NCBI RefSeq assembly: GCF_003018255.1
Contig: NZ_CP027440.1
Origin: Escherichia coli
Lineage (GTDB): Bacteria; Pseudomonadota; Gammaproteobacteria; Enterobacterales; Enterobacteriaceae
Strand: one strand, 5' to 3'
Length of the DNA stretch: 64,000 nt
Position 1 is the stretch's first letter; the number at the start of each line of letters is the position of its first letter. A program made the position numbers and the translations under genes. The notes beneath the pieces are model-generated. The model ran no database searches and was not told where the DNA came from. It saw only the letters and a list, made by a program, of their open reading frames with translations. This document shows, piece after piece, positions 17,468-62,099 of the stretch.

Positions 17468-17675
17468 GTAGATGCTCATTCCATCTCTTATGTTCGCCTT
17501 AGTGCCTCATAAACTCCGGAATGACGCAGAGCCGTTTACGGTGCTTATCGTCCACTGACAGATGTCGCTTATGCCTCATCAGACACCATGGACACAACGT
17601 TGAGTGAAGCACCCACTTGTTGTCATACAGACCTGTTTTAACGCCTGCTCCGTAATAAGAGCAGGCGTTTTTTTA
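17468..17675 (+). ncRNA. glmZ: GlmZ small RNA (glmS activator)
   Basis: Sequence beginning GTAGATGCTCATTCCATCTCTTATGTTCGCC and ending in terminator hairpin GCCTGCTC-CGTAATAA-GAGCAGGC plus T7, matching the remembered GlmZ sequence and its aslA-hemY intergenic location. Confidence 0.65.
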
Positions 17676-25154: not shown

Positions 25155-27212
25155 TCAGAGCTTCAAAGTTTGCTCAATGTCTGGTGTTTTGTGGCACTCT
25201 TCCTCCGTCGTCAAGATGATGATGTCATCATTGGATGAAAACATGTTCTGATCCAGATTACGTGTCCTGGCCGGACAGGGCGATGCGGTTCGATAAAGTT
25301 GGCTACCGATCCAGGTATAAACATAGCGATTGTCATAAGCGAAACGTTCGGTGGTTTTCAATGGTCCATCAATAGCAAAAATTTGAATATCATCGCGTAA
25401 ACGGGAAGAGCGCATAAAGTAACCATGGCCTTTCCCGGCGTTAATCCGTTGTTTCAGGAAAGGTGCAGAAGAGTCGAGCGTTATTATTTCCAGGGTGTCT
25501 TCACCAAAAGGAGACAATTTCGCAATGTACAGATGATTTTTGTACTGCGCGACACGATCGGTGATGGGATGAAATGCTTTCGGGTCAATATCGGGGAGTT
25601 TCTCCCATTGACTCCATTGCTGGTCTGTAGAGCGAAGCTTACGCCAGCTAACATCGGTTTCGCCGACGAGAAAAGAGCCTTCGCCATCAGAATATTGAGC
25701 AATGTTAACGGATGAGTTATAGGGGATTCCCGTTGGAATAAACGCACCATCCTCAAGAAGTCTGCCGTCAAGCTCACCACTACGGTAGTTTGCCCAATAG
25801 CCATATCCTGAATCTTTGGTTTTCCATTTCACCCGCACGGCTTTGGTATTGGGAGTTGGGTAGCGCCAAAGCTGTGAGCCATCGAATGCGTAAACATAAC
25901 GATCGTCGTGTGCATACCATTTCTTGTAATGGGGGCTATCGCTAAGGTGAGCCTCATGCTCGTCAGGAACACGATAATCCATCAGGATAAGCGGCCCGGA
26001 AGAATCGAATACCTGGAGGCCATCTTCTTCTTCACCATCAGCTGGTAATTTGGTCAATAAATAGCCGTGAGTTCTTCCCGCGTTAAAGCGTTTATCTATC
26101 ACCAAACCAGGATTATCCAGTGTGACGATATTTAGCCTATTTTCGCCAAATCCCGTTTTTTTGATGGTGTACAGCTTGTCCTGATACTGAGCAACGGTAT
26201 TACTAAGAGGATGAAATTGTTCTGGATCGAGGCCGGGTAGGACTTCTTGCTGGCATTCTGGCCCTTTGCGCCATGAAACAGAGTGTTCCTGCAAAGTGAA
26301 CGCCGCGCAGCTATTTGCCCTATCTTTGTCCAGATTTCCCTGATTCAGCACCTTCCGGTGCAGGCCGCTTTTATCTCGCCAGGTTAATAACGAACCGGGC
26401 ATCCAGCGTACGACAGTAAATGTCTCTGGGTCGGCTTTAAGCTGTTCGCCATTGATTATGATTTTGGTCCGTGTACGGGCTAACGTATCCCAGGGGCCAA
26501 ATGGTACGGCAACGCAGGGGTTAAACGTGGTGGAAAACTTTCCTCGCTGATCCCAGGACTTCTGCGCCAGCACACGGAAACTCTCGGGGTCAGCGAGGCG
26601 ATGTCCATCGACATATAAGAAATTAGCGTCACGTAATATCAGCCCCAGAAAGTCAGGTTTCCAGGGGGAACGGAATTTCACCTGATGCAGCGTTTTAATA
26701 TCTAGACTATTTTCTCCGCCATTGTCATCGGTGCGCGTGCCTTCAAAATAGAGACTGTGTTTATCTGCGGCAAAATCACCCCATGCCTTGAACGAGGCGA
26801 CATCGACGGGAGGTTTGTCTGGCGGGTTTTGCACAACTTCACCCGCGTAGAGGATATAGCGACCATCGCTATGCCAGGAGTAATGAGGATACCAGGCCTG
26901 TGCGCCTTCATAGAGGTAGTCGGTTGTCAGATCAGTCAGAGGAGGTACTTTATCCCATTTGTCTAGTGTTGTCGGGTCTATTAATAAATTGGGTAAACGG
27001 CGCAAACTTTTGTAATTCACGTCAGGAAGAGAAAGATTTGTTTCTTTATAAGGGCGCAGGTATACCACGCCTTTTCCCTGTTTCTGGTAAATATTATGTT
27101 CAGGCGCGGAAAGCCGACATCCCCATGCCGACGATAAAAACAACGAACAAGACAACAAACAAACCACATTGCGAAAGTGCATAAAGCCATCCTGGCGCGA
27201 GGTGTTGATCAC
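25155..27212 (-). CDS. secreted DKNYY-repeat protein (accessory)
   Basis: 685 aa; ORF track start at 27212 is GTG, a more likely ATG with SD lies at 27182 (MHFRNVVCLLSCSLFLSSAWGC signal peptide); repeated motifs DxxYVY/DKxYY (DGRYILYAGE, DKHSLYFEG, DANFLYVDG, DDRYVYAFDG, YKNHLYIAK, YDNRYVYTWIG) characteristic of the DKNYY family; not part of the K-12 cyaY-yifL interval as I recall it. Confidence 0.6.
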   Translation of the reverse strand: MINTSRQDGFMHFRNVVCLLSCSLFLSSAWGCRLSAPEHNIYQKQGKGVVYLRPYKETNLSLPDVNYKSLRRLPNLLIDPTTLDKWDKVPPLTDLTTDYLYEGAQAWYPHYSWHSDGRYILYAGEVVQNPPDKPPVDVASFKAWGDFAADKHSLYFEGTRTDDNGGENSLDIKTLHQVKFRSPWKPDFLGLILRDANFLYVDGHRLADPESFRVLAQKSWDQRGKFSTTFNPCVAVPFGPWDTLARTRTKIIINGEQLKADPETFTVVRWMPGSLLTWRDKSGLHRKVLNQGNLDKDRANSCAAFTLQEHSVSWRKGPECQQEVLPGLDPEQFHPLSNTVAQYQDKLYTIKKTGFGENRLNIVTLDNPGLVIDKRFNAGRTHGYLLTKLPADGEEEDGLQVFDSSGPLILMDYRVPDEHEAHLSDSPHYKKWYAHDDRYVYAFDGSQLWRYPTPNTKAVRVKWKTKDSGYGYWANYRSGELDGRLLEDGAFIPTGIPYNSSVNIAQYSDGEGSFLVGETDVSWRKLRSTDQQWSQWEKLPDIDPKAFHPITDRVAQYKNHLYIAKLSPFGEDTLEIITLDSSAPFLKQRINAGKGHGYFMRSSRLRDDIQIFAIDGPLKTTERFAYDNRYVYTWIGSQLYRTASPCPARTRNLDQNMFSSNDDIIILTTEEECHKTPDIEQTLKL

Positions 27213-27291
27213 GAAACTGCTAGCAGAACATAAATCCTCACAAGTAAGCGTAACTCTCGCAGCAAATCGTCACTTTTCAGAATCCATAAAG
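27122..27291. repeat. direct repeat copy 1 (5' end and upstream region of DKNYY gene)
   Basis: About 170 bp that recur at 28208-28370 with high similarity (e.g. GAACAAGACAACAAACAAACCACATTGCGA...GCATAAAGCCATCCTGGCGCGAGGTG...CACGAAACT...ACTTTTCAGA). Confidence 0.85.
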
Positions 27292-27553
27292 GTCATCGCT
27301 ATTTTCTGATAGTTGCTGGAATAAACGTGATATTTTCATTCACGATATAAACACAATCCCGGAACTGCCCCATAGTACGGCTAATAGCATAAAAATATTC
27401 CGGATTGACCCCTGGAAGGGAGGCAATGTGGGATTCCGCCCCCCGTTGCCTTCTTTATTGTCTTTCACGAGTTGTACCCAGGTTCCACCACGGGTATCTA
27501 ACATTCGCCACATTATTACGCTTTCTGCCGAACGTGATTTTTATAGAAATCTA

Positions 27554-28108
27554 TCAATTCATTTTCCCTGTACCATAAAGTTTATCCTTCACATCCTGCC
27601 GAACGCGGGTCTTGTACCCCCCGTTGTGAAGATCTTCATACGGAGAAAAAGAATCTTTACTCCACCCCAGCAACACTTTATCGCCAGGCATAAAATGCAC
27701 GTGCAGGTAATTTTCTCCCCATTCTCTTTTTGGGAGAGGTAACGTCATATTGCGTTTCTCCAGACGCATTCCAGCATTATACTGTGTACGAGTAGTACTT
27801 AATGTCCATATAACCTCTGCCGTATCCCCACTGACATCACCGCAACAGGTGATTGAACCGCCACCATTCGCAAAAGCATTCGCGCCCGCCACGCCGTTAA
27901 CACTGAATCCCAGTATCGGACGGTCAATTTCACTGTGGATTTCCAGTATCACTCCACCTCTTGGTCCTCCCCATACTGCCTGTCCTATATTCCACAACAC
28001 GACCAGTACTGGAACGACAATTAACGTCCGCCATACCCAGCGCCCCCAGCGGGCATAACCGCGCGTAAGCTTTTGGTCAAATTTTTCCAGTTGGGTAAAT
28101 AGCCCCAT
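27554..28108 (-). CDS. DUF3304-like membrane-anchored protein (accessory)
   Basis: 184 aa; N-terminal TM helix (WRTLIVVPVLVVLWNIGQAVWG); Gly-rich core (GFSVNGVAGANAFANGGGSITCCGDVSG) resembling DUF3304 proteins; family assignment from memory. Confidence 0.5.
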   Translation of the reverse strand: MGLFTQLEKFDQKLTRGYARWGRWVWRTLIVVPVLVVLWNIGQAVWGGPRGGVILEIHSEIDRPILGFSVNGVAGANAFANGGGSITCCGDVSGDTAEVIWTLSTTRTQYNAGMRLEKRNMTLPLPKREWGENYLHVHFMPGDKVLLGWSKDSFSPYEDLHNGGYKTRVRQDVKDKLYGTGKMN

Positions 28109-34117: not shown

Positions 34118-35020
34118 TTACTTAGCGCACTTCTTCACATCAATATTCCAGTCAGCACCAGACGCAACCTGATGTTTCTGCGCAAAATTATCCATATTCA
34201 GCGCCACGGAAACATTCAATAAGCTGTTCAGATACACCATCGGCTGGCCTTCCGGCACATCGCCGAAGCTTGCGACATACGGCATTTTCCCTGCGTATTT
34301 TTGCTGGGAACCTTCGGAAATGGTCACACACAACGTGTCGTTGAGTTTGATTCCTGCCTGTTTCAGCAACTCGTCGCTGATATTGCTCCAGACGTTGCCG
34401 TACTGAATATCGAGAATCGGGATATTGCCCTTCACTTCACCTTTTGTTGCTTTTGCTTTCTGATAAGAAAGTTCGACAACTTTTGCAGGAAGCTCTGGCC
34501 CCACCTGTTCGAACGTAATCGCTCCGGAAGCCAGACGCGCACCAGTGTAGGCATATACATCGCGACCATGGAAGGTATATGACTTTTCAGAACCTTTCAG
34601 GCGGTTAGCTTTTTCGTCGATTTCCCGGACGCTATCAATACCCAGAGTTTGTGCCACCAAAGTGAGCGTACCGTTATCTGGTGAAACGAAGTATTGACCG
34701 TTTTTGGTTTTCAGCACTACCGATTTACGGTCAGTGCCTACGCCCGGATCGACCACGCTAACAAACACCGAACCTTGCGGCCAGTAACTGGCAGTCTGAT
34801 ACAGGCGATAAGCGCCTTCCCAGATGTTATACGGTGGAATTTCGTGTGTTAAATCAAAGATTTTAAGATTATGGTCAACGCCGAATGCGACCCCTTTCAT
34901 CGCCGAGACGGCACCATCTTTCAGGCTAAAATCCGTTTGTAAAATCAAAGCGTTATCCGCATAAGCGGATGATGACCCCAGACAGGTTAATAAAAATAAT
35001 GTTGCGAGCGTTTTTTTCAT
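34118..35020 (-). CDS. secreted SAM hydroxide adenosyltransferase-like protein (DUF62 family, accessory)
   Basis: 300 aa; signal peptide MKKTLATLFLLTCLGSSSAYA; N-terminal LQTDFSLKDGAVSAMKGV and C-terminal ILDIQYGNVWSNI motifs resembling the DUF62 fold (fluorinase/chlorinase-related); I do not recall a gene between uvrD and yigE in K-12. Confidence 0.55.
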   Translation of the reverse strand: MKKTLATLFLLTCLGSSSAYADNALILQTDFSLKDGAVSAMKGVAFGVDHNLKIFDLTHEIPPYNIWEGAYRLYQTASYWPQGSVFVSVVDPGVGTDRKSVVLKTKNGQYFVSPDNGTLTLVAQTLGIDSVREIDEKANRLKGSEKSYTFHGRDVYAYTGARLASGAITFEQVGPELPAKVVELSYQKAKATKGEVKGNIPILDIQYGNVWSNISDELLKQAGIKLNDTLCVTISEGSQQKYAGKMPYVASFGDVPEGQPMVYLNSLLNVSVALNMDNFAQKHQVASGADWNIDVKKCAK

Positions 35021-36236: not shown

Positions 36237-37187
36237 ATGCTGAGCGCATTTCAACTGGAAAATAACCGACTGACCCGGCTGGAAGTCGAAGAGTCACAAC
36301 CCCTTGTAAATGCAGTATGGATTGATCTTGTCGAACCGGACGACGACGAGCGACTGCGCGTACAATCTGAACTTGGTCAGAGCCTGGCAACCCGCCCGGA
36401 ACTGGAAGACATCGAAGCATCGGCACGTTTCTTTGAAGACGATGACGGCCTGCATATTCACTCCTTCTTCTTCTTTGAAGATGCGGAAGATCACGCCGGT
36501 AACTCTACTGTGGCATTTACCATCCGTGATGGTCGTCTGTTTACTCTGCGTGAGCGTGAACTGCCTGCATTCCGTCTGTATCGTATGCGCGCCCGTAGCC
36601 AGTCAATGGTGGACGGTAACGCCTACGAGCTGCTGTTGGATCTGTTCGAAACCAAAATCGAACAGTTGGCGGATGAAATTGAAAACATCTACAGCGATCT
36701 GGAGCAGTTGAGCCGGGTGATTATGGAAGGGCATCAGGGCGATGAGTACGACGAGGCGCTCTCCACGCTGGCGGAACTGGAAGATATCGGCTGGAAAGTT
36801 CGCCTGTGTCTGATGGATACCCAGCGTGCGCTCAACTTCCTGGTACGTAAAGCACGCTTACCGGGTGGGCAACTGGAGCAGGCGCGTGAAATCCTGCGAG
36901 ATATCGAATCCCTGCTGCCGCATAACGAATCCCTGTTCCAGAAGGTGAACTTCCTGATGCAGGCGGCGATGGGCTTTATCAATATCGAGCAGAACCGCAT
37001 CATCAAAATCTTCTCGGTGGTATCCGTGGTGTTCCTGCCACCGACGCTGGTCGCTTCCAGCTACGGGATGAACTTTGAGTTTATGCCGGAACTGAAGTGG
37101 AGCTTCGGCTACCCAGGCGCGATTATCTTTATGATCCTCGCGGGCCTGGCACCGTATCTGTACTTTAAGCGGAAGAACTGGTTGTAA
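36237..37187 (+). CDS. corA: magnesium/cobalt transporter CorA
   Basis: 316 aa from ATG 36237 ([12 protein letters not shown]); C-terminal [11 protein letters not shown] with the GMN signature and two TM helices; long 5' leader upstream. Confidence 0.9.
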
Positions 37188-37222
37188 TATAAATGCCGGG
37201 TAAAGATTGTTCTTTATCCGGC

Positions 37223-37720
37223 TTATTGCTGAAAATTGTCTTTTTCAAAGTCATGCGGGTTGAACACTCGCTCTATCTTATTTTCCTGGGTTAGTTGATA
37301 CTCATTGTTATCAGCAATAAAAAAATGAGTATTACGGTAAGGATATTCATTAATAACCATTAAATAGTTTTTTACGATGCAATTATCATTGCTCTTAATC
37401 GTCGGGAAACAGTAGAGATCTTCATACGGCCCTTCGATATATTTTTTATAGTCAGTGAAGCCATTACCGATATCAATAACATACCAGGTATGCCAACTAC
37501 CTTCTGGTAGGGGATGTTGATTTTTAATTTCATTCTGACGCTTCAGATACCAATTTATTTTATCGCTGTCAGTCCATGGCAGATGATCAACGACCAGAAA
37601 GACTGAATTGCCAGCATCAGAGTATGTATACAAAATCTGTACAGGACGCAATGTCCATAAATTATAGATGCAGCATAGAAGAAATAAACATAATATAATT
37701 TTCTGGAGTTTGCTTTTCAT
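37223..37720 (-). CDS. DUF943-like small membrane protein (accessory, possible immunity-like partner)
   Basis: 165 aa, AT-rich codon usage; N-terminal TM helix (IILCLFLLCCIYNLW); start overlaps upstream gene stop (ATGA-type coupling at 37717-37720). Confidence 0.45.
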   Translation of the reverse strand: MKSKLQKIILCLFLLCCIYNLWTLRPVQILYTYSDAGNSVFLVVDHLPWTDSDKINWYLKRQNEIKNQHPLPEGSWHTWYVIDIGNGFTDYKKYIEGPYEDLYCFPTIKSNDNCIVKNYLMVINEYPYRNTHFFIADNNEYQLTQENKIERVFNPHDFEKDNFQQ

Positions 37721-38565
37721 AGATAATTTTCGATTCTTTCTATAGTGTTAAAATTGGTGAAAAAAGGTTTGAAAGCAAAGTCTTTATGCCGTTGTAAAAA
37801 GAACCATATGCGAAAAAATCTATATTTGCTATAAGTCTTGTTTTTGATATCAGTTACATCAAGACCGAAGTGGTCCTGTGCTACAAAATGAATTGTTGCA
37901 CTCCATCCTATAGCGTATTTTTGAAAACTTAAAAGAGATATTTTTTGAGCTGAAATATCATGAACACTGATTCCTAAGCCATTAAAACTGTCCTCGAAGT
38001 CATTAAATTTATTTAGTCTTGATGAAAGTAATTCGGTCTTAATCTTTTGTAGGAGAAGAGGCCGGTATCCTATCGTAGGTGTTGAAGAAATATCATTTTC
38101 GATACATTCTTTGATTACACGTATTGGGCTATTATAATCATATTTGTTTATTCGTTCATGAAAAGATAAGTTCAATTCCTGGCTATGGAAACTGTTGCCA
38201 TTTCCATATCTAAAATGATCAATCAGATCCTGGATGAGTGTTTTGTATTGTCCAAAAAAGGAAAACATTTTTGCCAGATCTTTCATTTCTGCAAATAAAA
38301 TATCAATACATTCACTTTGTGATATTTTTGTTCCAGAAGTTGGAACACTAAAAGCACCATAAGTAGAATTCGGCCCAGGAAAATGGTATTTAATGAGGCG
38401 GTAAGGATCAACTTTTGCAGAGATGTCGCTCAAGCCGAGTGAGAGAAAATCTTGTTCTTCCATATCCCCATATTGCATATCATCAGCAGAAAAATCATCG
38501 AATAAAGTAATAGTTTCGAAAAGTGTACAGGGCATATTAATTGATGAGCCTAATATGTTGTTCAT
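37717..38565 (-). CDS. DUF3289-like protein (accessory, function unknown)
   Basis: 282 aa, AT-rich; no signal peptide; sizes and sequence do not fit the K-12 yigF/yigG pair (~126 aa each, from memory) that occupies this corA-rarD slot; family assignment tentative. Confidence 0.45.
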   Translation of the reverse strand: MNNILGSSINMPCTLFETITLFDDFSADDMQYGDMEEQDFLSLGLSDISAKVDPYRLIKYHFPGPNSTYGAFSVPTSGTKISQSECIDILFAEMKDLAKMFSFFGQYKTLIQDLIDHFRYGNGNSFHSQELNLSFHERINKYDYNSPIRVIKECIENDISSTPTIGYRPLLLQKIKTELLSSRLNKFNDFEDSFNGLGISVHDISAQKISLLSFQKYAIGWSATIHFVAQDHFGLDVTDIKNKTYSKYRFFRIWFFLQRHKDFAFKPFFTNFNTIERIENYL

Positions 38566-38875
38566 TTATATTCTCCTTTCTTATAATTAAGGGCAATGTT
38601 AATTTGATAAGAAATAATAGGCTAAAAAAATTTTAAAAAAGAAATGCACTTCACATTTTTCATTACATTCTGAAGAGAACTTGGTTAATGATTGGTCTTG
38701 CTCATCGCTAATAACATAATGCTGAATTTACCAAAAATGAAATTTATTAAAGCAAATGAAAATATACAACGACGTCTGGAAATTCTGCCTTTCCTTATGT
38801 GAGTCTCCTGTCAGCATGGCAATATGCCCACTCTCATGCAAGAGTCGGCATATTTTTTCAGAATATATTTATTTT

Positions 38876-39766
38876 TTATTTGGCCGTTCTACGCTGCGTA
38901 TAAATCGCATCCATCACAAAAATTGCCAGCGCCACCCAAATAAAGGTGAAAGTCACCATCTTATCGGCACCCGGTTTTTCACCATAAAACGTCACTGCCA
39001 ACAGGAACATTAGCGTCGGCCCAATGTACTGGAAAAAGCCTAATGTTGAGAGTCGTAAGCGTGTAGCTGCTGCGGTAAAACATAACAGTGGCACGGTGGT
39101 GACAATACCGGCGGCGATCAGCAGTAAATTCAGCGACATCGGGTTTTGCCCCATATGGCTGGTTGAGCTGTCGGCAATAGCAAACAGGTAAATCGCCGCC
39201 ACGGGCAGCAGCCACATGGTTTCGATTAACATGCCGGTTTGCGCTTCAACGGCAATTTTCTTGCGTACCAGGCCGTAGAAGGCAAAACTAAACGCCAGCC
39301 CCAGCGCGATGATTGGCAGCGAACCAAAAGTCCAGAGCTGGACCAATACACCACATATCGCCAGAATCACCGCCAGCCATTGCATCCGGCGGAATCGCTC
39401 GCCGAGGAAAATCATCCCCAGCACAATGTTCACCAGCGGGTTAATAAAGTAACCAAGGCTCGCTTCCAGCATATGGTGATTGTTCACCGCCCAGATAAAC
39501 AGTAGCCAGTTGCCACCAATCAGCACGGCAGAGACTGCCAGCATGAAGATTTTCTTTGGTGTCTGAATCAGCGTTTTTAAATAGGACCACTGGCGGCAAA
39601 TGCTCATCAGCACCACCATAAAGAAAAACGACCAGATCACGCGATGCGTCAGGATCTCATCGGCGGGCACGTAGTAAATCAGCTTGAAGTACGCTGGCGC
39701 AATACCCCAAATAAAATAAGCGGCAAGAGCGAGTAATACGCCCTGCCGCGTTTGTTTGGTGTCCAT
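38876..39766 (-). CDS. rarD: EamA/DMT-family transporter RarD
   Basis: 296 aa from ATG at 39766 (MDTKQTRQGVLLALAAYFIWG); 10-TM DMT transporter. Confidence 0.85.
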   Translation of the reverse strand: MDTKQTRQGVLLALAAYFIWGIAPAYFKLIYYVPADEILTHRVIWSFFFMVVLMSICRQWSYLKTLIQTPKKIFMLAVSAVLIGGNWLLFIWAVNNHHMLEASLGYFINPLVNIVLGMIFLGERFRRMQWLAVILAICGVLVQLWTFGSLPIIALGLAFSFAFYGLVRKKIAVEAQTGMLIETMWLLPVAAIYLFAIADSSTSHMGQNPMSLNLLLIAAGIVTTVPLLCFTAAATRLRLSTLGFFQYIGPTLMFLLAVTFYGEKPGADKMVTFTFIWVALAIFVMDAIYTQRRTAK

Positions 39767-48520: not shown

Positions 48521-50782
48521 ATGACAATTCTTAATCACACCCTCGGTTTCCCTCGCGTTGGCCTGCGTCGCGAGCTGAAAAAAGCGCAAGAGAGTTATTG
48601 GGCGGGGAACTCCACGCGTGAAGAACTGCTGGCTGTTGGGCGTGAATTACGTGCCCGTCACTGGGATCAACAAAAGCAGGCGGGTATCGACCTGCTGCCG
48701 GTGGGCGATTTTGCCTGGTACGATCATGTACTGACCACCAGTCTGCTGCTGGGTAACGTTCCGCCACGTCATCAGAACAAAGATGGTTCGGTAGATATCG
48801 ACACCCTGTTCCGTATTGGTCGTGGACGTGCACCGACTGGCGAACCTGCGGCGGCAGCGGAAATGACCAAATGGTTTAACACCAACTATCACTACATGGT
48901 GCCGGAGTTCGTTAAAGGCCAACAGTTCAAACTGACCTGGACGCAGCTGCTGGAGGAAGTGGACGAGGCGCTGGCGCTGGGCCACAAGGTCAAGCCCGTG
49001 CTGCTGGGGCCGGTTACCTACCTGTGGCTGGGTAAAGTGAAAGGTGAACAGTTTGATCGCCTGAGCCTGCTGAACGACATTCTGCCGGTTTATCAGCAAG
49101 TGTTGGCAGAACTGGCAAAACGCGGCATTGAGTGGGTACAGATCGACGAACCAGCGCTGGTACTGGAACTACCGCAGGCGTGGCTGGACGCATACAAACC
49201 CGCTTACGACGCGCTCCAGGGCCAGGTGAAACTGCTGCTGACTACCTATTTTGAAGGCGTAACGCCAAATCTCGACACGATTACTGCGCTGCCTGTTCAG
49301 GGGCTGCATGTGGACCTTGTACATGGTAAAGATGACGTTGCTGAACTGCACAAGCGTCTGCCTTCTGACTGGCTACTGTCTGCGGGTCTGATCAATGGTC
49401 GTAACGTCTGGCGCGCCGATCTTACCGAGAAATATGCGCAAATTAAGGACATTGTCGGCAAACGCGATTTGTGGGTGGCATCTTCCTGCTCGTTGCTGCA
49501 CAGCCCCATCGACCTGAGCGTGGAAACGCGTCTTGATGCAGAAGTGAAAAGCTGGTTTGCCTTCGCCCTACAAAAATGCCATGAACTGGCACTGCTGCGC
49601 GATGCGCTGAACAGTGGTGATACGGCGGCTCTGGCAGAATGGAGCGCTCCGATTCAGGCGCGTCGTCACTCTACCCGTGTCCATAATCCGGCGGTAGAAA
49701 AGCGTCTTGCAGCCATTACCGCCCAGGACAGTCAGCGTGCGAATGTCTATGAAGTGCGTGCTGAAGCCCAGCGTGCGCGTTTTAAACTGCCCGCGTGGCC
49801 GACTACCACGATTGGTTCCTTCCCGCAAACCACGGAAATTCGTACACTGCGTCTGGATTTCAAAAAGGGTAATCTCGACGCCAACAACTACCGCACGGGC
49901 ATTGCGGAACATATCAAGCAGGCCATTGTCGAGCAGGAACGTTTGGGACTGGATGTGCTGGTACATGGCGAGGCCGAGCGTAATGACATGGTGGAATACT
50001 TTGGCGAGCATCTGGATGGCTTTGTCTTTACGCAAAACGGTTGGGTACAGAGCTACGGTTCCCGCTGCGTGAAGCCACCGATTGTCATTGGTGACGTTAG
50101 CCGCCCGGCACCAATTACCGTGGAGTGGGCGAAATATGCACAATCGCTGACCGACAAACCGGTGAAAGGGATGCTGACGGGGCCGGTAACCATACTCTGC
50201 TGGTCATTCCCGCGTGAAGATGTCAGCCGTGAAACCATCGCCAAACAAATTGCGCTGGCGCTGCGTGATGAAGTGGCGGACCTGGAAGCCGCTGGAATTG
50301 GCATCATCCAGATTGATGAACCGGCACTGCGCGAAGGTTTACCGCTGCGTCGCAGCGACTGGGATGCCTATCTCCAGTGGGGCGTGGAGGCTTTCCGTAT
50401 CAACGCCGCCGTGGCGAAAGATGACACACAAATCCACACTCACATGTGTTACTGCGAGTTCAACGACATCATGGATTCGATTGCGGCGCTGGACGCAGAC
50501 GTCATCACCATCGAAACCTCGCGTTCCGACATGGAGTTGCTGGAGTCGTTTGAAGAGTTTGATTATCCAAATGAAATTGGTCCAGGCGTCTATGACATTC
50601 ACTCGCCAAACGTACCGAGCGTGGAATGGATTGAAGCCCTGCTGAAGAAAGCGGCAAAACGCATTCCGGCAGAGCGTCTGTGGGTAAACCCGGACTGTGG
50701 CCTGAAAACGCGCGGCTGGCCAGAAACCCGCGCGGCACTGGCGAACATGGTGCAGGCGGCGCAGAATTTGCGTCGGGGATGA
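48521..50782 (+). CDS. metE: cobalamin-independent methionine synthase
   Basis: 753 aa; [23 protein letters not shown]-terminus; C-terminal zinc-binding motifs ([16 protein letters not shown]). Confidence 0.95.
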
Positions 50783-50818
50783 TGAGTATTAACGAGTCAT
50801 TGTAAATTGCAGTACGAT

Positions 50819-50846
50819 AATGGCTTCCAGTACTGGAAGCCATTTT
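50819..50846 (+). terminator. Rho-independent terminator after metE
   Basis: Hairpin AATGGCTTCCAG-TACT-GGAAGCCATT followed by TTTG. Confidence 0.7.
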
Positions 50847-50950
50847 GCATGAGTGCCAGATTGAAGCAGATCTTCAGGAGTAGAAATAACCGAATCGTTT
50901 TTTTCGCAAAACACAGTTTTGAGTGATTCCGTTCAGTAATCAACGCTACG

Positions 50951-51211
50951 TTATTTATTCTCACGTTGCACGAGATTGTATCCCTTTTCACTAACGTGGT
51001 AGTGAGGCATAGACTTATGCCCGCTATCCTCAATAATAACCAAACCTTCGTTAGCTAATTTGTTAACAATATTAACAATATTACCGAATCCTGGTATTTG
51101 CCTTATGGATAGTGTGCGATCGAGATTCATCCAGTTCCAGTTTATATCTTTCTCAGTCATAACGTTCAGCACGTTAAGTTCATTTTTAGTGATCACGATA
51201 TTCTGTACCAA
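50951..51211 (-). CDS. second paralog of putative immunity protein (possible orphan immunity)
   Basis: 86 aa; clearly paralogous to the 51271-51528 product (shared IVxxNxLxVMxEKDIxWxWMxLDRTLxIRxIPGFGNxxNIVxKLxNxGLVxI pattern); AT-rich. Confidence 0.55.
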   Translation of the reverse strand: MVQNIVITKNELNVLNVMTEKDINWNWMNLDRTLSIRQIPGFGNIVNIVNKLANEGLVIIEDSGHKSMPHYHVSEKGYNLVQRENK

Positions 51212-51270
51212 AATTGATGAGTATCTTATTGAAAGATCACAATGTAAATCATGCTCCTGTAATGGCTGGA

Positions 51271-51528
51271 TCAGAAGAGGTTGTCTTGTTGTTCTTTGAT
51301 AAGATTCAATCCATATTGAGAAACTCTGTAGCGTGGTTTAGAGTTGCCCTCACCATTTACGATATCAACCAACCCATGATTAACCAGCTTTGTTACGATA
51401 TTCGCTACGTTGCCAAATCCTGGAATATTTCGTATAGCTAAAGTACGATCCAGCACCATCCAGCTCCAGTCAATATCTTTCTCAGCCATAACTTTCAGCA
51501 CGTTAAATTCAACTATCGTAATCGTCAT
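51271..51528 (-). CDS. putative cognate immunity protein of the Hcp-fusion effector
   Basis: 85 aa; start codon overlaps the stop of the upstream Hcp-fusion gene (ATGA at 51525-51528), the arrangement typical of effector-immunity pairs. Confidence 0.55.
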   Translation of the reverse strand: MTITIVEFNVLKVMAEKDIDWSWMVLDRTLAIRNIPGFGNVANIVTKLVNHGLVDIVNGEGNSKPRYRVSQYGLNLIKEQQDNLF

Positions 51529-52658
51529 TTTTTTGCATCCGGATGAAATAAGTCAGTATCTTTAATTTTAAAGTCTTCTAGAGTTGCAGTATGTACATTA
51601 TTCCATAATTCATATCCATCTAAACCTTTCGGTTCACCTGTTTCCCATCCTAAATTACAATAACGCTGATACTCGCGACATTCATGAGTATAGTAGTTCA
51701 GATCGTATTTTTCAGGAAGCAATTCTTTATTTGCTATTTTCTTTAGCCTTGAAATCATTACATCATTAGCTGGATCATGATCAAATCTGGAGATATGCTT
51801 TTCAACAATAGCGATACCTTCCCTGTTGATTGTTACGCCATCTATCGTCAGGTTTTCAATTGGACCACCGGCAAGGTCGGGATTAAATGGTCTTCCTGAT
51901 ACTGCTCCTCTGGCTCCGAAATGCTCAAGTGATTCCAAATCAGGGAATCTCATTCTTCCCAGAACAACTCCAGCAACTATTGAAGCACCAGCGATGAGTA
52001 ACCCTTTGTTATCCATAACTTGATCGTAACCAGCAGGTGCATCTCCTCCCAACTTGTTTGCTGTTTCCCTGAATCCTTCGATATTCCCATTGTATATGCC
52101 GCCAGCAGCAAGCAGTCTGCCAACCGCTTTACTATTGAGTGTTTTGAGGCCATTATCATCTTTAGTTTTTGGCCGTGGTATAAACAGACGGTTGTAGTTA
52201 TCGGGAAATGCCAAATAACTAAATTCAGTATTAGCAATCAGATGCCTGGAGAGTATATATTCATAACTGGCAGTGATGGTTTCTGTATCCAGATTGTTCT
52301 CAGTAAACAGGTGATTGATTGCTGATAAGAGCGCGCCGCGGAGTTGAATGTTGTAATATTTCTCCCATCGACCAAATCTATTGATCCGATAGAAGTCAAA
52401 CTCCATGAACAACTGCTCGTTATTGTTAATAGCGTTAATAAGTAACGGGGAGCTTTTGTCAATCAACTTACAGAAACTAAGGCCATGTAATTGTGACCCT
52501 TTGCCTGTATTCGTAATACTATTAGATAGCGAGAACGCGAAGATTTCATCTTCATGGCCAATCTGCCAGCGATTACCTATTGATGCGCTCGTTCCGCAAC
52601 GAGAGGAAATACATCCTTGTTGTTCTCCGGTTATGGTCAGGTAAATAATATCACTCAT
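51525..52658 (-). CDS. Hcp-domain protein with C-terminal extension (candidate T6SS Hcp-effector fusion, Hcp-ET-like)
   Basis: 377 aa; N-terminal ~165 aa match the Hcp tube-protein signature (YLTITGEQQG...DEIFAFSLSNSITNTGKGS...LSFCKLIDKSSPLLINA; compare Hcp FIKIGDVKGES...IDVLAWSWG...LSFTKYIDKSTPNL); ~210 aa C-terminal extension of unrecognised fold; AT-rich. Confidence 0.7.
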   Translation of the reverse strand: MSDIIYLTITGEQQGCISSRCGTSASIGNRWQIGHEDEIFAFSLSNSITNTGKGSQLHGLSFCKLIDKSSPLLINAINNNEQLFMEFDFYRINRFGRWEKYYNIQLRGALLSAINHLFTENNLDTETITASYEYILSRHLIANTEFSYLAFPDNYNRLFIPRPKTKDDNGLKTLNSKAVGRLLAAGGIYNGNIEGFRETANKLGGDAPAGYDQVMDNKGLLIAGASIVAGVVLGRMRFPDLESLEHFGARGAVSGRPFNPDLAGGPIENLTIDGVTINREGIAIVEKHISRFDHDPANDVMISRLKKIANKELLPEKYDLNYYTHECREYQRYCNLGWETGEPKGLDGYELWNNVHTATLEDFKIKDTDLFHPDAKK

Positions 52659-53049
52659 CCTTGAAAAACCTTTTGTTAATTCTTTTGTGAAAGAAAAATA
52701 GTATTGTTATTTTTTACCTTTATTTACGCCCAAAAGGGATGAACTAAAATGTGAAAAACAAAATGTTTCACTTTAATATCTTTTTATCAGGAAGGTCTGA
52801 GATAATTTATAATTAATGTGAATGTGTTGATAATAATTAATGTTTGTTTGAGAATGGGAGTTGATGGTAAATCTCTAAGGTGTCTGCCAGTGAAGAGACT
52901 CATTTATGACTATGACTTGCCGACTTTCTTAAGGTCAAATAGCGGAGTCGTGCTCTCCAATCAATTCATACTGATTATTTTTTGGGGGACAGAGATGGCA
53001 GCAAAATGCACTCGTTCACTCACCATCTCAAATATAGACTAAGAGGAAA

Positions 53050-53865
53050 CTAATTCCGCTTCCCACCATACTGCTTAAACCACTCCAGCATACGCTGCCA
53101 GCCATCTTTCGCAGATTCGGCATGATAGCTCGGGCGATAATCGGCGTTGAATGCATGCCCGGCATCCGGGTAGACGATAATCTCTGCTTTCGCATTAGCA
53201 GCCCGCAGCGCCTGGCGCATGGTTTCAACGCTCTCCTGCGGAATGCTGTTATCCTGACCACCATATAAGCCGAGAACCGGCGCGTTAAGATCGGTTGCGA
53301 TATCAACAGGTTGTTTCGGTGAATTCAGCGACTTGTCGCCCGTCAGTTTGCCGTACCACGCCACTGCGGCTTTTAGCTGTGGATTATGCGCGGCATACAG
53401 CCAGGTGATACGTCCACCCCAGCAGAATCCGGTGATCATTAAACGATGAACATCGCCGCCGTTGCGGGAAGCCCAACTGGCGACATGATCGAGATCGGCC
53501 AGCACCTGCGAGTCAGGCACTTTTGCTACCAGACCGCTAAGCAACGTGGGGATATCGGCAAAATCATTCGGATCGCCTTCGCGGAAGTAAAGTTCAGGTG
53601 CAATAGCCAGATACCCCTCCAGCGCCAGACGGCGACAAATGTCGCGGATATGTTCATGCACGCCAAAAATTTCCTGCACTACAATGACCACTGGCAGTGG
53701 GCCATCGCTTTGCTTTGGTCTGGCATGGTAAGCAGGCATGTTATCCCCTTGTGAAGGGATAGAGGTGAAGCCCGCCACAATCGCGTCGTCCGGAGTCTGA
53801 ACGATGGTCGAAGCGAGAGGCGATGCCGCAGGTGCAAATCCAGATTGTTGTGTTGTTGCCATGGT
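53050..53865 (-). CDS. ysgA: dienelactone hydrolase-family protein YsgA
   Basis: ORF track starts at 53928; ATG at 53865 (MATTQQSGFAPAASPL) gives ~271 aa; alpha/beta hydrolase with GFCWGG nucleophile motif. Confidence 0.8.
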   Translation of the reverse strand, partial: TMATTQQSGFAPAASPLASTIVQTPDDAIVAGFTSIPSQGDNMPAYHARPKQSDGPLPVVIVVQEIFGVHEHIRDICRRLALEGYLAIAPELYFREGDPNDFADIPTLLSGLVAKVPDSQVLADLDHVASWASRNGGDVHRLMITGFCWGGRITWLYAAHNPQLKAAVAWYGKLTGDKSLNSPKQPVDIATDLNAPVLGLYGGQDNSIPQESVETMRQALRAANAKAEIIVYPDAGHAFNADYRPSYHAESAKDGWQRMLEWFKQYGGKRN

Positions 53866-53981
53866 ATTCTCCGTACCCTTATAAAAATGTTGCGCAATGT
53901 TAACTATAGTCAGCATGCAACAAATCACATTGCCTGAATCGGCTCATCTTTTATGCAGTCCTGCAGAATGAAGAGTGATTT

Positions 53982-53997
53982 ATGTGATTTGCATCAC
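53982..53997 (+). promoter_or_regulatory. CRP-binding site in udp promoter region
   Basis: TGTGATTTGCATCACT fits TGTGA-N6-TCACA about 125 bp upstream of udp; a second imperfect palindrome TGCAACGCATTTGCGTCA follows. Confidence 0.55.
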
Positions 53998-54123
53998 TTT
54001 TGATGGGTAAATTTATGCAACGCATTTGCGTCATGGTGATGAGTATCACGAAAAAATGTTAAACCCTTCGGTAAAGTGTCTTTTTGCTTCTTCTGACTAA
54101 ACCGATTCACAGAGGAGTTGTAT

Positions 54124-54888
54124 ATGTCCAAGTCTGATGTTTTTCATCTCGGCCTCACTAAAAACGATTTACAAGGGGCTACGCTTGCCATCGTCCCTGG
54201 CGACCCGGATCGTGTGGAAAAGATCGCCGCGCTGATGGATAAGCCGGTTAAGCTGGCATCTCACCGCGAATTCACCACCTGGCGTGCAGAGCTGGATGGT
54301 AAACCTGTTATCGTCTGCTCTACCGGTATCGGCGGCCCGTCTACCTCTATTGCTGTTGAAGAGCTGGCACAGCTGGGCATTCGCACCTTCCTGCGTATCG
54401 GTACAACGGGCGCTATTCAGCCGCATATTAATGTGGGTGATGTCCTGGTTACCACGGCGTCTGTTCGTCTGGACGGCGCGAGCCTGCACTTCGCACCGCT
54501 GGAATTCCCGGCTGTCGCTGATTTCGAATGTACGACTGCGCTGGTTGAAGCGGCGAAGTCAATTGGTGCCACCACTCACGTTGGTGTGACGGCTTCTTCT
54601 GATACCTTCTACCCGGGTCAGGAACGTTACGATACTTACTCTGGTCGCGTAGTTCGTCACTTTAAAGGTTCTATGGAAGAGTGGCAGGCGATGGGCGTAA
54701 TGAACTATGAAATGGAATCTGCAACCCTGCTGACCATGTGTGCAAGTCAGGGCCTGCGTGCCGGTATGGTAGCGGGGGTTATCGTTAACCGCACCCAGCA
54801 AGAGATCCCGAATGCTGAGACGATGAAACAAACCGAGAGCCATGCGGTGAAAATCGTGGTGGAAGCGGCGCGTCGTCTGCTGAAATAA
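54124..54888 (+). CDS. udp: uridine phosphorylase
   Basis: 253 aa from ATG 54124 ([35 protein letters not shown]); PNP/UDP family. Confidence 0.9.
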
Positions 54889-54913
54889 AAAACGCTCCCC
54901 AACTTCGGGGAGC
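54889..54913. terminator. hairpin terminator shared by udp and the convergent tct operon
   Basis: GCTCCCC-AACTTC-GGGGAGC hairpin; the T-run lies on the minus-strand side (complement of AAAAAACG), so it is best placed to terminate the minus-strand tct operon. Confidence 0.6.
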
Positions 54914-54921
54914 GATATCAG

Positions 54922-56412
54922 TTACTGACGCCGTAAACGCATTATTTTGCGGATTATTGGCGTCAGTAGCGTAAAGGCTGCCAGAGTTAGCAATGCCAGA
55001 GTGATCGGTCGGGTATACAGAAAGTCCAGTGAACCCCCTGAAAGCGACAGCGCACGGCGAAAATTACTTTCTGCCATCGGGCCCATAATCAATGCCAGCA
55101 CTACGGGTGATGCCGGATATCCTCCTTTCTGCATGAAATAGCCCACCACGCCTGCAATCAGCATAATGCCAACATCAAACAGGCTATTGTTCAACGCATA
55201 AGTCCCGACCACACAAAGTGCGAGGATCATCGGTGTGAGAATATTGCCGGGGATCTTCACCACGTTACCGATGACTTTCAAAGAGAGCAGTCCAAGAACT
55301 AGCAGCATGAAGTAACAAAAGATCATGCCGACAAACAGTGTATAAACCATATCGCCGTGGTCGGTAAACATCAGCGGGCCTGGTTGCATTCCCTGTAACG
55401 TTAACGCGCCCAGCATGATGGCGGTTACCGCATCGCCAGGGATCCCCAGCGTCAGCATAGGTAACAATGCGCCACCGGTGCAGCCATTCGCGCCTGCCTC
55501 ACAGGAGGCCACAGCTTTAATTTCACCCTTACCAAAGTTTTCTGGTGTCTTACTGAAACGACGAGTTTCGTTATAGGCAACAAAAGCTGCAATATCCGCC
55601 CCCGCACCGGGGATCATGCCGATAAAAACCCCTAATCCTGATGAGCGCAAAATGGTTAATGCAATGCGGCGTAGTGTTTGCCAGGGCAGTAACAGACTGC
55701 CGATAGCCACCTTCGCCCCCTGACGAATTTGCTGGTTTTGCTCCATAGAGCGGAATGCTTCTGAAGCAGCAAATAAACCAATCATCACCGGGATAAATGG
55801 CACATTCATCAGCTCCACAAATCCACCTGTAAACCGTGGAAAACCGCCCATTGGATCAAGGCCTATCGTTGCGATCAGCAATCCGCCAACCCCGGCAATC
55901 AGCCCTTTAATCAGCGACTCACCGGAAATACTGGCAATAATACTCAGTCCGAAGGTTGCCAGGGCGAAGGACTCCGAGGCACTAAATTTCAGCGCCCAAC
56001 TGGCAAGTACCGGAGAGAGAAACATCAGCACGATAATGCTGAGCGTTCCGCCACTAAAGGAAGAGAACGTGGCGGCACTCAATGCCAGCCCTGCTTTTCC
56101 CTGTTTCGTCAGCTCATAACCATCAATAGCGGTGGCTGCGGCGGCAGGCGTTCCGGGAATTTTGAGCAAAATTGCGGTGATAGAACCACCGTAGACGCCA
56201 CCAAAAAAGACGCCGCAAATCATCAACAAGCCAGAAACAGGCTCCATGCCGTAGGTGAAAGGCAGCAAAATCGCCACACCCATGGTCGCTGTCAGACCAG
56301 GCAAAGCGCCAATCACAATACCCAGCATCACCCCAAAAGTGGCAAACAGCAGCGCCTGAGGATTATTGAGTAATGTCGAAAAACCCTGAGTTAAAAGTTC
56401 ACTTTCAAACAT
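54922..56412 (-). CDS. tctA: tripartite tricarboxylate transporter large permease
   Basis: 496 aa, many TM helices; TctA-family features (GAITAILLKIPGTPAAAAT, GMIPGAGADIAAFVAYNE). Confidence 0.75.
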   Translation of the reverse strand: MFESELLTQGFSTLLNNPQALLFATFGVMLGIVIGALPGLTATMGVAILLPFTYGMEPVSGLLMICGVFFGGVYGGSITAILLKIPGTPAAAATAIDGYELTKQGKAGLALSAATFSSFSGGTLSIIVLMFLSPVLASWALKFSASESFALATFGLSIIASISGESLIKGLIAGVGGLLIATIGLDPMGGFPRFTGGFVELMNVPFIPVMIGLFAASEAFRSMEQNQQIRQGAKVAIGSLLLPWQTLRRIALTILRSSGLGVFIGMIPGAGADIAAFVAYNETRRFSKTPENFGKGEIKAVASCEAGANGCTGGALLPMLTLGIPGDAVTAIMLGALTLQGMQPGPLMFTDHGDMVYTLFVGMIFCYFMLLVLGLLSLKVIGNVVKIPGNILTPMILALCVVGTYALNNSLFDVGIMLIAGVVGYFMQKGGYPASPVVLALIMGPMAESNFRRALSLSGGSLDFLYTRPITLALLTLAAFTLLTPIIRKIMRLRRQ

Positions 56413-56424
56413 TGCTGGCCCCTG

Positions 56425-56934
56425 TTATTCGAAAAATGTGCCGACAGGCAATGGCACCTGTAACGCTTCGACAAACAGCAACCAGAGGATTGCCGTTAAC
56501 AGCAGCGCAATACCCGGTGTGAGTACCCATCGCCTGTAGCCCATCAACGTCATAATGACGATGAGGAAAACAGGAGTAGTAATGAGATAACCGCAGTAGC
56601 TCATCGCCACAATATAAAACGCGGTTGCCGCAATTCCTGTTGCTGTTTTCCTGAATGCCGGTTTTTCCTGTGCGTTGGCGCAAGAGGCTGGTTTTGCCTG
56701 CAAAAGATCGCGTATCACCAGCAAGACAGCGAGCACAATCAGGGCACAGGCATAGAAGGTAGGGAAGGCACTTGCACCGGGATCCGTTTCAATGGCAGTT
56801 GCTGGAAAATCAGCGGCATTAATCATCACCGCGCCAGCAACCACACAAAGTAACAGCGCCACCACCATCGTTGATGAAAGGCGCTTGCGGTGCGGTACGG
56901 CGAGTTGAGCAACAGACTGTTTTGTGTTCATCAA
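56425..56934 (-). CDS. tctB: tripartite tricarboxylate transporter small membrane subunit
   Basis: 169 aa with 4 TM helices, between tctC-like and tctA-like genes. Confidence 0.65.
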   Translation of the reverse strand: MMNTKQSVAQLAVPHRKRLSSTMVVALLLCVVAGAVMINAADFPATAIETDPGASAFPTFYACALIVLAVLLVIRDLLQAKPASCANAQEKPAFRKTATGIAATAFYIVAMSYCGYLITTPVFLIVIMTLMGYRRWVLTPGIALLLTAILWLLFVEALQVPLPVGTFFE

Positions 56935-56947
56935 CCGTACCTCAGGT

Positions 56948-57922
56948 TTATTTTTTCAGGCCCAGGCGAGTCAGCAACTCGTCAAAGTACTTTTCCTGTT
57001 CGCTGATTTGGGTCTGGAAGCTGGCAGCGTCAAGCCATGCATAGTTGAGATTCAACTTTTGCAGTGCATCCTGGAATGCAGGCTCTTCAGCCGTCTCTTT
57101 TGCTGCCTTTGCCAGAACATCCACCACATCCTGCGGCGTTTTTTGCGACACAATCAGGCCGCGCCAGGTGCCGATGGAGAGATCAACGCCTTTCTCTTTT
57201 AACGTCGGGACGTCAGGCATGGTTTTCATTCGCTCATCCGCCATCACTACCAGTGTCTTCAGCTTGCCGCCATTCACATGGTTGATAACTTCTCCTGGGC
57301 TTACGGAAACCGCTTCAATATGCCCGCCTAACAGGCCTGTAATGGCAGGGGCTGCGCCGTCATACGGGACATGAGAAAACTTTGTGCCCGTTTTGTCTTC
57401 CAGTGCAGCTGCCGCCAGATGCCAGATAGCTCCGGTGCCTGAGTTACCAATGCGTACTTTTCCGGGATTCGCTTTGGAGTAAGCCATAAATTCTTCATAG
57501 CTATTCCACGGCGCATCGGCACGGACTGTGATAGCAGCCGGATCCGCATTCAGACGGGCAATGGGTTTAAAGTCGCTGGTTTTAAAACGCACCATTCCGA
57601 GGCTGGGAAGGGTGGTCAGTTCAACCGTGCCTAAACCAATTTTGTAACCGTTAGGGCGGGCAGCGGCGATTTCACTCAGGCCGATAGCACCGCCTCCGCC
57701 AGGTTTATTGATAACCCCGATGCTGACGGGTAAATGGTTTTTGGCGGCATCAGCAAAGGCACGGGCAACCAGATCCGTACCGCCTCCGGCAGCGTAGGGA
57801 ACGACTAACTCGATCTGTTTGGTTGGGTAGGAGGCAGCCTGTACAGGCGCAATGCTGAGGGCAGCGCCTGCAAGAAGTACCATTGCAGCCATTTTTTTCG
57901 GTAAGGTAAGATGTTTTATCAT
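56948..57922 (-). CDS. tctC: tripartite tricarboxylate transporter periplasmic substrate-binding protein (Bug/TctC family)
   Basis: 324 aa; signal peptide; Bug-family architecture (IELVVPYAAGGGTDLVAR, GNSGTGAIWHLAA). Confidence 0.75.
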   Translation of the reverse strand: MIKHLTLPKKMAAMVLLAGAALSIAPVQAASYPTKQIELVVPYAAGGGTDLVARAFADAAKNHLPVSIGVINKPGGGGAIGLSEIAAARPNGYKIGLGTVELTTLPSLGMVRFKTSDFKPIARLNADPAAITVRADAPWNSYEEFMAYSKANPGKVRIGNSGTGAIWHLAAAALEDKTGTKFSHVPYDGAAPAITGLLGGHIEAVSVSPGEVINHVNGGKLKTLVVMADERMKTMPDVPTLKEKGVDLSIGTWRGLIVSQKTPQDVVDVLAKAAKETAEEPAFQDALQKLNLNYAWLDAASFQTQISEQEKYFDELLTRLGLKK

Positions 57923-57946
57923 TGCTTTTATATCCTTATTTATCAG

Positions 57947-59570: not shown

Positions 59571-59593
59571 TAGTCGTTTCCTTTAATCATGGT

Positions 59594-60361: not shown

Positions 60362-60422
60362 ACGTTTCTCCTGATGATATTGCTGAAGTGTTCCACATAA
60401 TGACGTGGGGAAAAGGTGATAT

Positions 60423-60458
60423 ATCCCACAATATAAACTCCATCTCATATTGTGGGAT
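60423..60458. promoter_or_regulatory. perfect inverted repeat, candidate operator of the IclR-family regulator
   Basis: ATCCCACAATAT-N12-ATATTGTGGGAT, 12-bp perfect arms, 60-100 bp upstream of the regulator start and about 120 bp upstream of rmuC. Confidence 0.4.
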
Positions 60459-60577
60459 AAAATAATGAAAATTAACGATCGTTTTGCGTAGCGCCTCGCA
60501 GGAAATGCCTTTCCAACTGGACGTTTGTACAGCACAATTCTATTTTGTGCGGGTAAGTTGTTGCGTCAGGAGGCGTT

Positions 60578-62005: not shown

Positions 62006-62099
62006 CCCATTGGGGGTAGTTAAGCCGGGTAGAAATCTAGGGCATCGACGCCCAATCTGTTACACTTCTGGAACAATTTTTTGATGAGCAGGCATTGAG

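Follow-up and report, generated by a model that had tools for sequence, protein, structure and literature searches.

A DUF3289–DUF943 gene pair in the corA–rarD slot of Escherichia coli, a probable orphan antibacterial effector–immunity cassette

Since 2024, DUF3289 has been described as a periplasm-acting, colicin M-like toxin domain of type VI secretion systems (T6SS) and DUF943 as its immunity protein (PMC11148199, PMC12135965, PMC12469244). Here we describe a gene pair that combines these two Pfam families in a 64,000-nucleotide (nt) stretch of Escherichia coli DNA (contig NZ_CP027440.1 of assembly GCF_003018255.1; hereafter, the window), where it sits in the slot between corA and rarD at positions 37188–38875, the whole interval from the stop codon of corA (37187) to the start of rarD (38876). 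A sequence-only reading of the window had likened the pair to toxin–immunity systems, a likeness now borne out by published DUF3289/DUF943 effector–immunity pairs; it had also called the function of the two families unknown, which the same publications have made outdated. We consider it probable that the locus is an antibacterial effector–immunity cassette of the DUF3289/DUF943 type, orphan in the sense of not being linked to T6SS genes. The pair is an ordinary member of the toxin–immunity family described in 2024–2025 and belongs to an already known kind.

Among the closest described systems is the PAAR–DUF3289 protein T6EC1 of Yersinia pseudotuberculosis IP32881, which, once directed to the periplasm, kills E. 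coli and makes its cells round (Mol Syst Biol 2024, PMC11148199). Its DUF943 neighbour, T6IC1, rescues the cells, and the authors, who saw a structural likeness to the colicin M-like PaeM, called for both Pfam families to be re-annotated as toxin and immunity (PMC11148199). In the E. coli locus, too, the DUF3289 gene comes first and the DUF943 gene follows directly downstream, and its DUF943 protein is predicted to share with T6IC1 a topology of one N-terminal transmembrane helix and a periplasmic body. By homology, the E. coli toxin would also act in the periplasm and round cells. T6EC1 differs in having PAAR fused at its N terminus and in being encoded inside a T6SS operon, whereas the E. 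coli toxin is the domain alone, encoded at an orphan site flanked by housekeeping genes. Those relatives with a PAAR fusion that we found are about 35% identical to the E. coli toxin, a figure for these relatives and not for T6EC1 itself.

In Aeromonas jandaei, an orphan DUF3289 protein (WP_042032936.1) is present in the T6SS-dependent secretome (PLoS Biol 2025, PMC12135965), and deletion of its gene together with the downstream gene makes the cells sensitive to wild-type T6SS attack; competition assays identified the two as a bona fide T6SS effector–immunity pair (PMC12135965). The E. coli locus resembles this system in its orphan site away from T6SS genes and in its downstream immunity gene; for the Aeromonas effector, T6SS-dependent secretion and antibacterial action are proven. 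In Klebsiella, 780 linkages between DUF3289 and DUF943 clusters have been reported in association with T6SS (PLoS Genet 2025, PMC12469244). The clusters concerned, 10480 (DUF3289) and 51573 (DUF943), likewise form a putative enterobacterial effector–immunity pair, recognized from T6SS co-occurrence, but they lie at another locus in another genus and are known from genomics only. DUF3289 is also found among the toxin domains of PIX-domain and PAAR-containing effectors.

Two further groups serve as structural references. The C-terminal domain (CTD) of BtpeA from Bacteroides fragilis has been solved with its immunity protein BtpiA (PDB 9jdi, 9jg8, 9jg9). This pair comes from another phylum and has low sequence identity to the E. 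coli pair, and BtpeA, at 608 amino acids (aa), has an N-terminal carrier part. BtpeA reportedly requires the adaptor BtapC and is co-secreted with a second effector (PMC13402684), and the papers citing its description do not state its enzymatic activity. Neither the PDB codes nor ‘YPO3983’, a name of the DUF3289 family, led to anything relevant in the literature searched, and no biochemical data on any DUF3289 protein were found there. The second group, comprising colicin M, PaeM, syringacin M and pectocin M1, differs from the E. coli toxin in that it shows no sequence or profile relation to it and has a catalytic signature that is not evident in it. Moreover, the colicin M group relies on FhuA/TonB uptake as opposed to injection, and the E. 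coli toxin is devoid of receptor-binding and translocation domains.

The gene pair, its proteins and their conserved partnership

Both genes lie on the minus strand. The toxin gene (37717–38565) encodes a 282-aa stand-alone protein of the DUF3289/YPO3983 family, a predicted T6SS effector, and the immunity gene (37223–37720) encodes a 165-aa DUF943 protein. As the sequence-only reading had noted, and as the list of open reading frames confirms, the two overlap: the TGA of the toxin gene and the ATG of the immunity gene share the 4-nt sequence ATGA (37717–37720, minus strand), read directly. Judged from this arrangement, the two genes are co-transcribed and translationally coupled. A Shine–Dalgarno sequence, AAGGAG (38573–38578, minus strand), lies 7 nt 5′ of the toxin ATG. 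The AT-rich region 5′ of the cassette genes (38566–38731, minus strand) is the presumed site of the promoter; the GC content of the entire intergenic segment 38566–38875 is 0.30. A promoter consensus scan of 37100–38950 gave 7 sites against 8.5 expected from shuffles and is uninformative in such AT-rich DNA. On the other side, a hairpin with a 12-bp stem (37195–37222) separates the convergent corA and immunity genes directly past both stop codons and is likely a bidirectional terminator. No Rfam family was found inside the locus.

The family assignments that the sequence-only reading proposed hold firmly. The 282-aa protein matches Pfam DUF3289 (PF11692) with an E value of 6.7e-83 over model positions 2–270 of 272 and NCBIfam TIGR03034 (‘YPO3983 family’) with 405.6 bits, the cut-off being 156.45; the 165-aa protein matches Pfam DUF943 (PF06092) with an E value of 1.8e-27 over model positions 1–150 of 151. 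DUF3289 is the sole domain of the toxin and spans the entire protein, which thus lacks a carrier domain. An alignment of 53 DUF3289 relatives, with identities down to 23%, shows H232, F233, G234, D239, W254, L257, Q258 and P267 to be invariant and D231, D236 and D203 to be nearly so. These residues define a core, D231-H-F-G-L-D236-x-x-D239, W254, L257-Q258 and P267, whose motifs are also present in BtpeA.

Hydropathy supports the earlier description of a soluble protein followed by one with a single N-terminal transmembrane helix. The toxin has no hydrophobic stretch above a Kyte–Doolittle value of 1.2 and no signal-peptide-like segment. In the immunity protein, a single hydrophobic stretch (residues 6–26; Kyte–Doolittle 1.79) comes after a Lys-rich N terminus (MKSKLQK), and its AlphaFold 2 model places a helix at residues 2–24. 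It is therefore predicted to have a single N-terminal membrane anchor and an α/β domain that faces the periplasm and includes a nearly invariant cysteine pair, C104 and C114.

Fold comparison places both proteins with the solved Bacteroides complex, the toxin agreeing with the BtpeA CTD (9jdi_A) and the immunity protein with its cognate BtpiA (9jdi_C). For the DUF943 protein, the link to BtpiA emerged by fold comparison alone, a single-sequence phmmer search against the PDB yielding only noise. The likeness of the toxin fold to colicin M, PaeM and pectocin M1 is weak, and a profile built from the 53 toxin relatives retrieves no colicin M-type chain at E ≤ 10. The catalytic signature of colicin M-type enzymes is D-x-Y-D-x5-H-R; the string D-x-Y-D…H-R is absent from the toxin sequence, the conserved acidic and histidine motif of which is instead D-H-F-G-L-D-x-x-D. 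Neither protein of the pair matches any PADLOC defence model at E ≤ 1.

That DUF3289 and DUF943 genes are often adjacent in enterobacteria, as stated in the sequence-only reading, is confirmed by nine pairs in eight other loci, sampled from Salmonella, Enterobacter, Trabulsiella, metagenomic and further contigs and spread over five different core-genome slots. The DUF943 gene lies 3′ of the DUF3289 gene in all nine, and in eight it overlaps the DUF3289 gene or begins less than 30 nt away; in the remaining pair it begins 167 nt downstream, beside a truncated Enterobacter copy. Two records of non-enterica Salmonella subspecies carry the pair in the rarD–corA slot, as in the window, while one Enterobacter-like assembly and two Trabulsiella contigs carry it between fadH and lsrK. 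The other sites are an enterobacterial-type core slot between rlmG and fadH and slots beside valS and beside aspC. One of the loci examined encodes a PAAR-fused form of DUF3289; the stand-alone cassettes examined invariably consist of two genes inserted among housekeeping genes, without any T6SS gene close by. The Enterobacter-like Logan assembly (L008 4499–7319) holds two tandem DUF3289–DUF943 pairs, the first with a toxin truncated to 225 aa, which suggests duplication and decay of such cassettes.

Among 33 longer DUF3289 relatives, we found ten fusions to PAAR, one to DUF4280 and one to Hcp, and further fusions to PG_binding_1, LysM, SH3_3, M23, M14 and a glycoside-hydrolase-like domain. 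These fusion partners support both T6SS delivery and a target in the cell wall or envelope.

Cassette history, distribution and alleles

In E. coli K-12, the corA–rarD interval holds yigF and yigG, each of 381 nt and 126 aa, in agreement with the lengths of about 126 aa given in the sequence-only reading. Matches of K-12 to the window end at 37187 and resume at 38732. The sequence in between (37188–38731, minus strand), from the corA stop codon to a deletion junction in yigG, is an inserted cassette of 1,544 bp. The pair had been described as markedly AT-rich, and the GC content of this insert, 0.330, is indeed the minimum among 625 equal-sized windows across the 64 kb (mean 0.514, s.d. 0.040). 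GC content is 0.31–0.36 over the pair and about 0.5 in the flanks; at third codon positions it is 0.27 and 0.36 in the two cassette genes and 0.63 in corA and rarD.

The right end of the cassette is fused directly to about codon 12 of yigG. The junction sequence and the K-12 comparison identify a 5′ remnant of yigG at 38732–38788 (minus strand), which translates as ...ISRRRCIFSFALINFIF against ISRRRYIFSFILINFIF in K-12 YigG. Strain RS571 preserves a fuller order: corA, the DUF943 gene, the DUF3289 gene, a 147-bp duplicate of the 3′ end of corA, a yigF pseudogene, yigG and rarD. In O157:H7, the pair and the corA′ duplicate precede a different small open reading frame. In the window, unlike in RS571 and O157, no direct repeat of the corA 3′ end is left. 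As read from these sequences, the ancestral arrangement is corA-cassette-corA′-yigF-yigG-rarD, and the yigG remnant marks the deletion of corA′, yigF and most of yigG. Because RS571 and O157 represent intermediate forms and a fragment of yigG survives, the window allele can be seen, at the sequence level, to have arisen through an insertion next to corA that duplicated the corA end and, as a second step, a deletion of about 0.9 kb. The cassette is horizontally acquired AT-rich DNA, and its arrival next to corA duplicated 147 bp of the corA 3′ end.

Across 5,426 complete E. coli genomes, the pair occurs in 2,633–2,647 (about 49%), and the toxin gene is full-length in nearly all of the roughly 2,630 carriers. 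The exact cassette/yigG junction of the window recurs in 930 genomes, and yigFG is present at a coverage of at least 80% in 2,408. The pair is always chromosomal, with none of its 2,654 places on plasmids, and the median genome carries one copy (maximum, two places). In a plasmid collection, the only full-length matches were to two records of megabase size (1.0 and 4.8 Mb); beyond these there was an irrelevant 63-bp match to Salmonella and E. coli plasmids of about 180–245 kb. The cassette is not plasmid-borne.

The ratio of nonsynonymous to synonymous substitution rates (dN/dS) is 0.11–0.25 for both genes, among E. coli alleles and in comparison with Salmonella, so both are maintained by purifying selection. 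The alleles are nevertheless mosaic. The toxins of the window and of RS571/O157 differ at 34 residues, all in positions 6–178 (20% amino acid difference); this variable part has a dN of 0.098 and a dS of 0.41, whereas codons 179–282 have a dN of 0 and a dS of 0.03. The immunity genes of the window and RS571 share 99.6% identity. In O157, a toxin of the RS571 type is paired with an immunity gene that has diverged further (93.7% at the nucleotide level). The toxin's N-terminal two-thirds, its catalytic third and the immunity gene are therefore shuffled among alleles by recombination. In the variable part, dS reaches about four times the value for corA (0.11), which points to import from beyond ordinary E. 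coli diversity or to old balanced alleles. Since dN/dS in this part is still about 0.24, it shows no sign of positive selection.

Proposed mechanism, delivery and alternative explanations

From the homologues, we infer the toxicity of the E. coli DUF3289 protein, the rescue by its DUF943 partner and the secretion of the toxin, and the system would then work as follows. From a co-transcribed and, as the overlap indicates, translationally coupled pair of genes, the 282-aa toxin would be made in the cytoplasm, where it would be harmless to the producer because its sequence has no export signal. It would be loaded on a T6SS whose genes lie at another site in the genome and which would fire it into the periplasm of Gram-negative neighbours, where, by analogy with its homologues, it would harm the synthesis or integrity of the cell wall and lead to rounding and death. 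The most cited proposal for the chemistry of this step is a colicin M-like cleavage of the lipid II precursor. The DUF943 protein, predicted to be held in the inner membrane by a single N-terminal helix and to expose its globular domain to the periplasm, would bind and block toxin arriving from sister cells, as suggested by the homologous crystal complex.

Close relatives of the window strain encode a machine that could deliver the toxin. Strains 200164 and JNE23-011 encode identical copies of both proteins (WP_001059675.1 and WP_000837559.1). The locus is 100% identical between the window and 200164 and the remaining window is 98.6–99.2% identical, while JNE23-011, the closest complete genome, is 99.8% identical over 39500–64000. 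Both strains have a complete T6SS cluster at metV with all 13 core genes; the clusters hold tssA, B, C, E, F, G, H, J, K and L, hcp, vgrG, and genes for an ImcF/TssM protein and a PAAR protein (468 aa). Elsewhere in 200164, the search for a T6SS found the aspV site empty, only a VasL pseudogene in the pheU island and only defence genes in the pheV island.

Several observations weigh against an active effector–immunity cassette. The presence of a T6SS for the window itself is deduced from the genomes of these relatives. Strain C41(DE3) (NZ_CP010585.1), of the BL21 lineage, has the pair at 92% identity, yet its metV–amiC interval is empty and its aspV site has no T6SS; in some hosts, therefore, the toxin cannot be fired in that way. 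No T6SS gene adjoins the pair in the window, neither an adaptor gene nor one for VgrG, Hcp or PAAR, its neighbours being corA and rarD, and the toxin is not fused to PAAR, VgrG or Hcp and lacks a recognized loading domain of the MIX, FIX, PIX or WHIX type. One solution would be that the bare 282-aa DUF3289 proteins of Enterobacteriaceae load onto the T6SS by means other than the known fusions, motifs and adaptors, with the determinant in the N-terminal two-thirds, the part that diverges so deeply between E. coli alleles, and that the DHFGLD..D chemistry is unlike that of colicin M; this combination we regard as improbable.

The alternative that we take most seriously concerns the chemistry alone. 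The toxin may act on the cell wall or envelope through a chemistry of its own D-H-F-G-L-D-x-x-D, W..LQ and KPF core, and not as a colicin M-type lipid II phosphodiesterase; we find this possible, if tentative. It keeps the effector–immunity architecture and is compatible with every other step set out above. A different reading is that the cassette is defensive or a leftover, such that the immunity gene alone matters in this lineage, against DUF3289-armed competitors, and the toxin is not loaded or its AT-rich DNA is silenced. The occurrence of the pair in C41(DE3), which has no T6SS at metV and aspV, the orphan site without a loading determinant and the very high AT content all speak for it, very AT-rich DNA being typical of xenogeneic silencing by H-NS. 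Possible in hosts without a T6SS, such as the BL21 lineage, it leaves the intact and constrained toxin gene unexplained, and we judge it unlikely: nearly all of about 2,630 genomes carry that gene at full length, it is under purifying selection comparable to that on the immunity gene (dN/dS 0.11–0.25), and the DUF3289 protein of Aeromonas, just as much an orphan, is secreted and active (PMC12135965).

Two genes that are translationally coupled and horizontally acquired could also form an addiction, anti-phage or toxin–antitoxin module that works in the cytoplasm and has nothing to do with secretion; this seems to us very improbable. In the assays of the Yersinia homologue, the toxin carried a signal for periplasmic targeting (PMC11148199), and a membrane-anchored antidote whose Cys-pair domain is predicted to be periplasmic would be in the wrong compartment for a cytoplasmic toxin. 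Furthermore, neither protein matches any PADLOC defence model, and both match a T6SS effector–immunity crystal complex. Just as improbable, in our view, is that the pair encodes a bacteriocin like colicin M, released from the cell and dependent on a receptor, together with its immunity protein. The weak fold likeness to colicin M, PaeM and pectocin M1 would fit such a bacteriocin, as would the immunity protein, which has the anchor-plus-periplasmic-domain topology of the colicin M immunity protein Cmi; however, DUF3289 fills all 282 aa and so leaves no room for receptor-binding or translocation domains, no lysis gene is present, and the pair is chromosomal only (0 of 2,654 places on plasmids). 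Divergent orthology to K-12 YigF and YigG, for which the shared chromosomal slot could be cited, is ruled out. BLASTP of YigF and YigG against both cassette proteins gave no match (best E 0.27, over 10 residues), so the high identity that would have undercut the sequence-only reading is absent; the Pfam families are others, YigF belonging to DUF2628; and the two sets stand side by side in RS571, just as a yigG fragment stands beside the cassette in the window.

Neighbouring accessory modules and implications

The window contains other accessory features. Between metE and ysgA, at 51525–52658 (minus strand), lies a gene for a 377-aa ‘evolved’ Hcp with a TssD domain at residues 1–147 and a C-terminal extension of about 230 aa without a Pfam family. 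It is followed by two paralogous small open reading frames of 85 aa (51271–51528) and 86 aa (50951–51211) that are 57% identical. The module at 50951–52658 resembles an orphan fusion of Hcp to a toxin, with candidate immunity genes in tandem; as a second orphan module of T6SS type, it counts in favour of the effector–immunity reading of the DUF3289–DUF943 pair. The 50.8–52.7 kb region is the only other part of the window with a GC content below 0.40. Beyond metE (50779–64000), gene content differs between the window, which has the Hcp–toxin module, ysgA, udp and a tripartite tricarboxylate transporter/galactonate cluster, and strain 200164, which has an island with hxlB, a ptsG-like gene, tkt and fdrA/ylbE/arcC. 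This region is a second hypervariable slot.

An accessory insert at 25155–28108 (minus strand) separates cyaY from lptM. It encodes a 184-aa DUF3304 protein (27554–28108) with a weak match to the Tli1a family (E 8.5e-4) and a 685-aa protein (25155–27212) that has an N-terminal hydrophobic segment and internal repeats and no Pfam, NCBIfam or PDB sequence match. In the T6SS cluster of strain 200164, a DUF3304 paralogue adjoins a DUF2235 (Tle1-type) gene; the insert may therefore be a T6SS-related orphan module. Between uvrD and yigE, at 34118–35020 (minus strand), a gene absent from the K-12 layout encodes a 300-aa member of the S-adenosylmethionine (SAM) hydrolase/SAM-dependent halogenase family with a signal-like N terminus, scoring below the equivalog cut-offs for (R)-SAM hydrolase. 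Rfam matches within 13412–13845, 17468–17674 and 63223–63474 (plus strand) correspond to four tRNAs (argX-hisR-leuT-proM position), the GlmZ small RNA and the Erse small RNA, all ordinary for this chromosomal region.

For E. coli, the DUF3289–DUF943 pair of the corA–rarD slot touches on annotation as well as on experiment. About half of complete genomes carry the pair, among them O157:H7, Nissle-derived strains and the BL21 lineage, and in RefSeq its products are still labelled ‘YPO3983 family protein’ and ‘DUF943 family protein’. By analogy with the characterized systems, these labels could with good confidence be replaced by those of an antibacterial toxin acting in the periplasm and the matching immunity protein. 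Hosts of the BL21 lineage used for assaying foreign DUF3289 toxins carry a native DUF943 gene. BL21 is the host in which the Yersinia DUF3289 toxin was lethal (PMC11148199), the native DUF943 gene evidently giving no protection; this may reflect allele specificity, the immunity protein being non-cognate, or silencing. The stand-alone form of the toxin raises the question of how carrier-less effectors load onto the T6SS. As a polymorphic competition locus, the corA–rarD slot can serve both strain typing and the interpretation of E. coli competition experiments.

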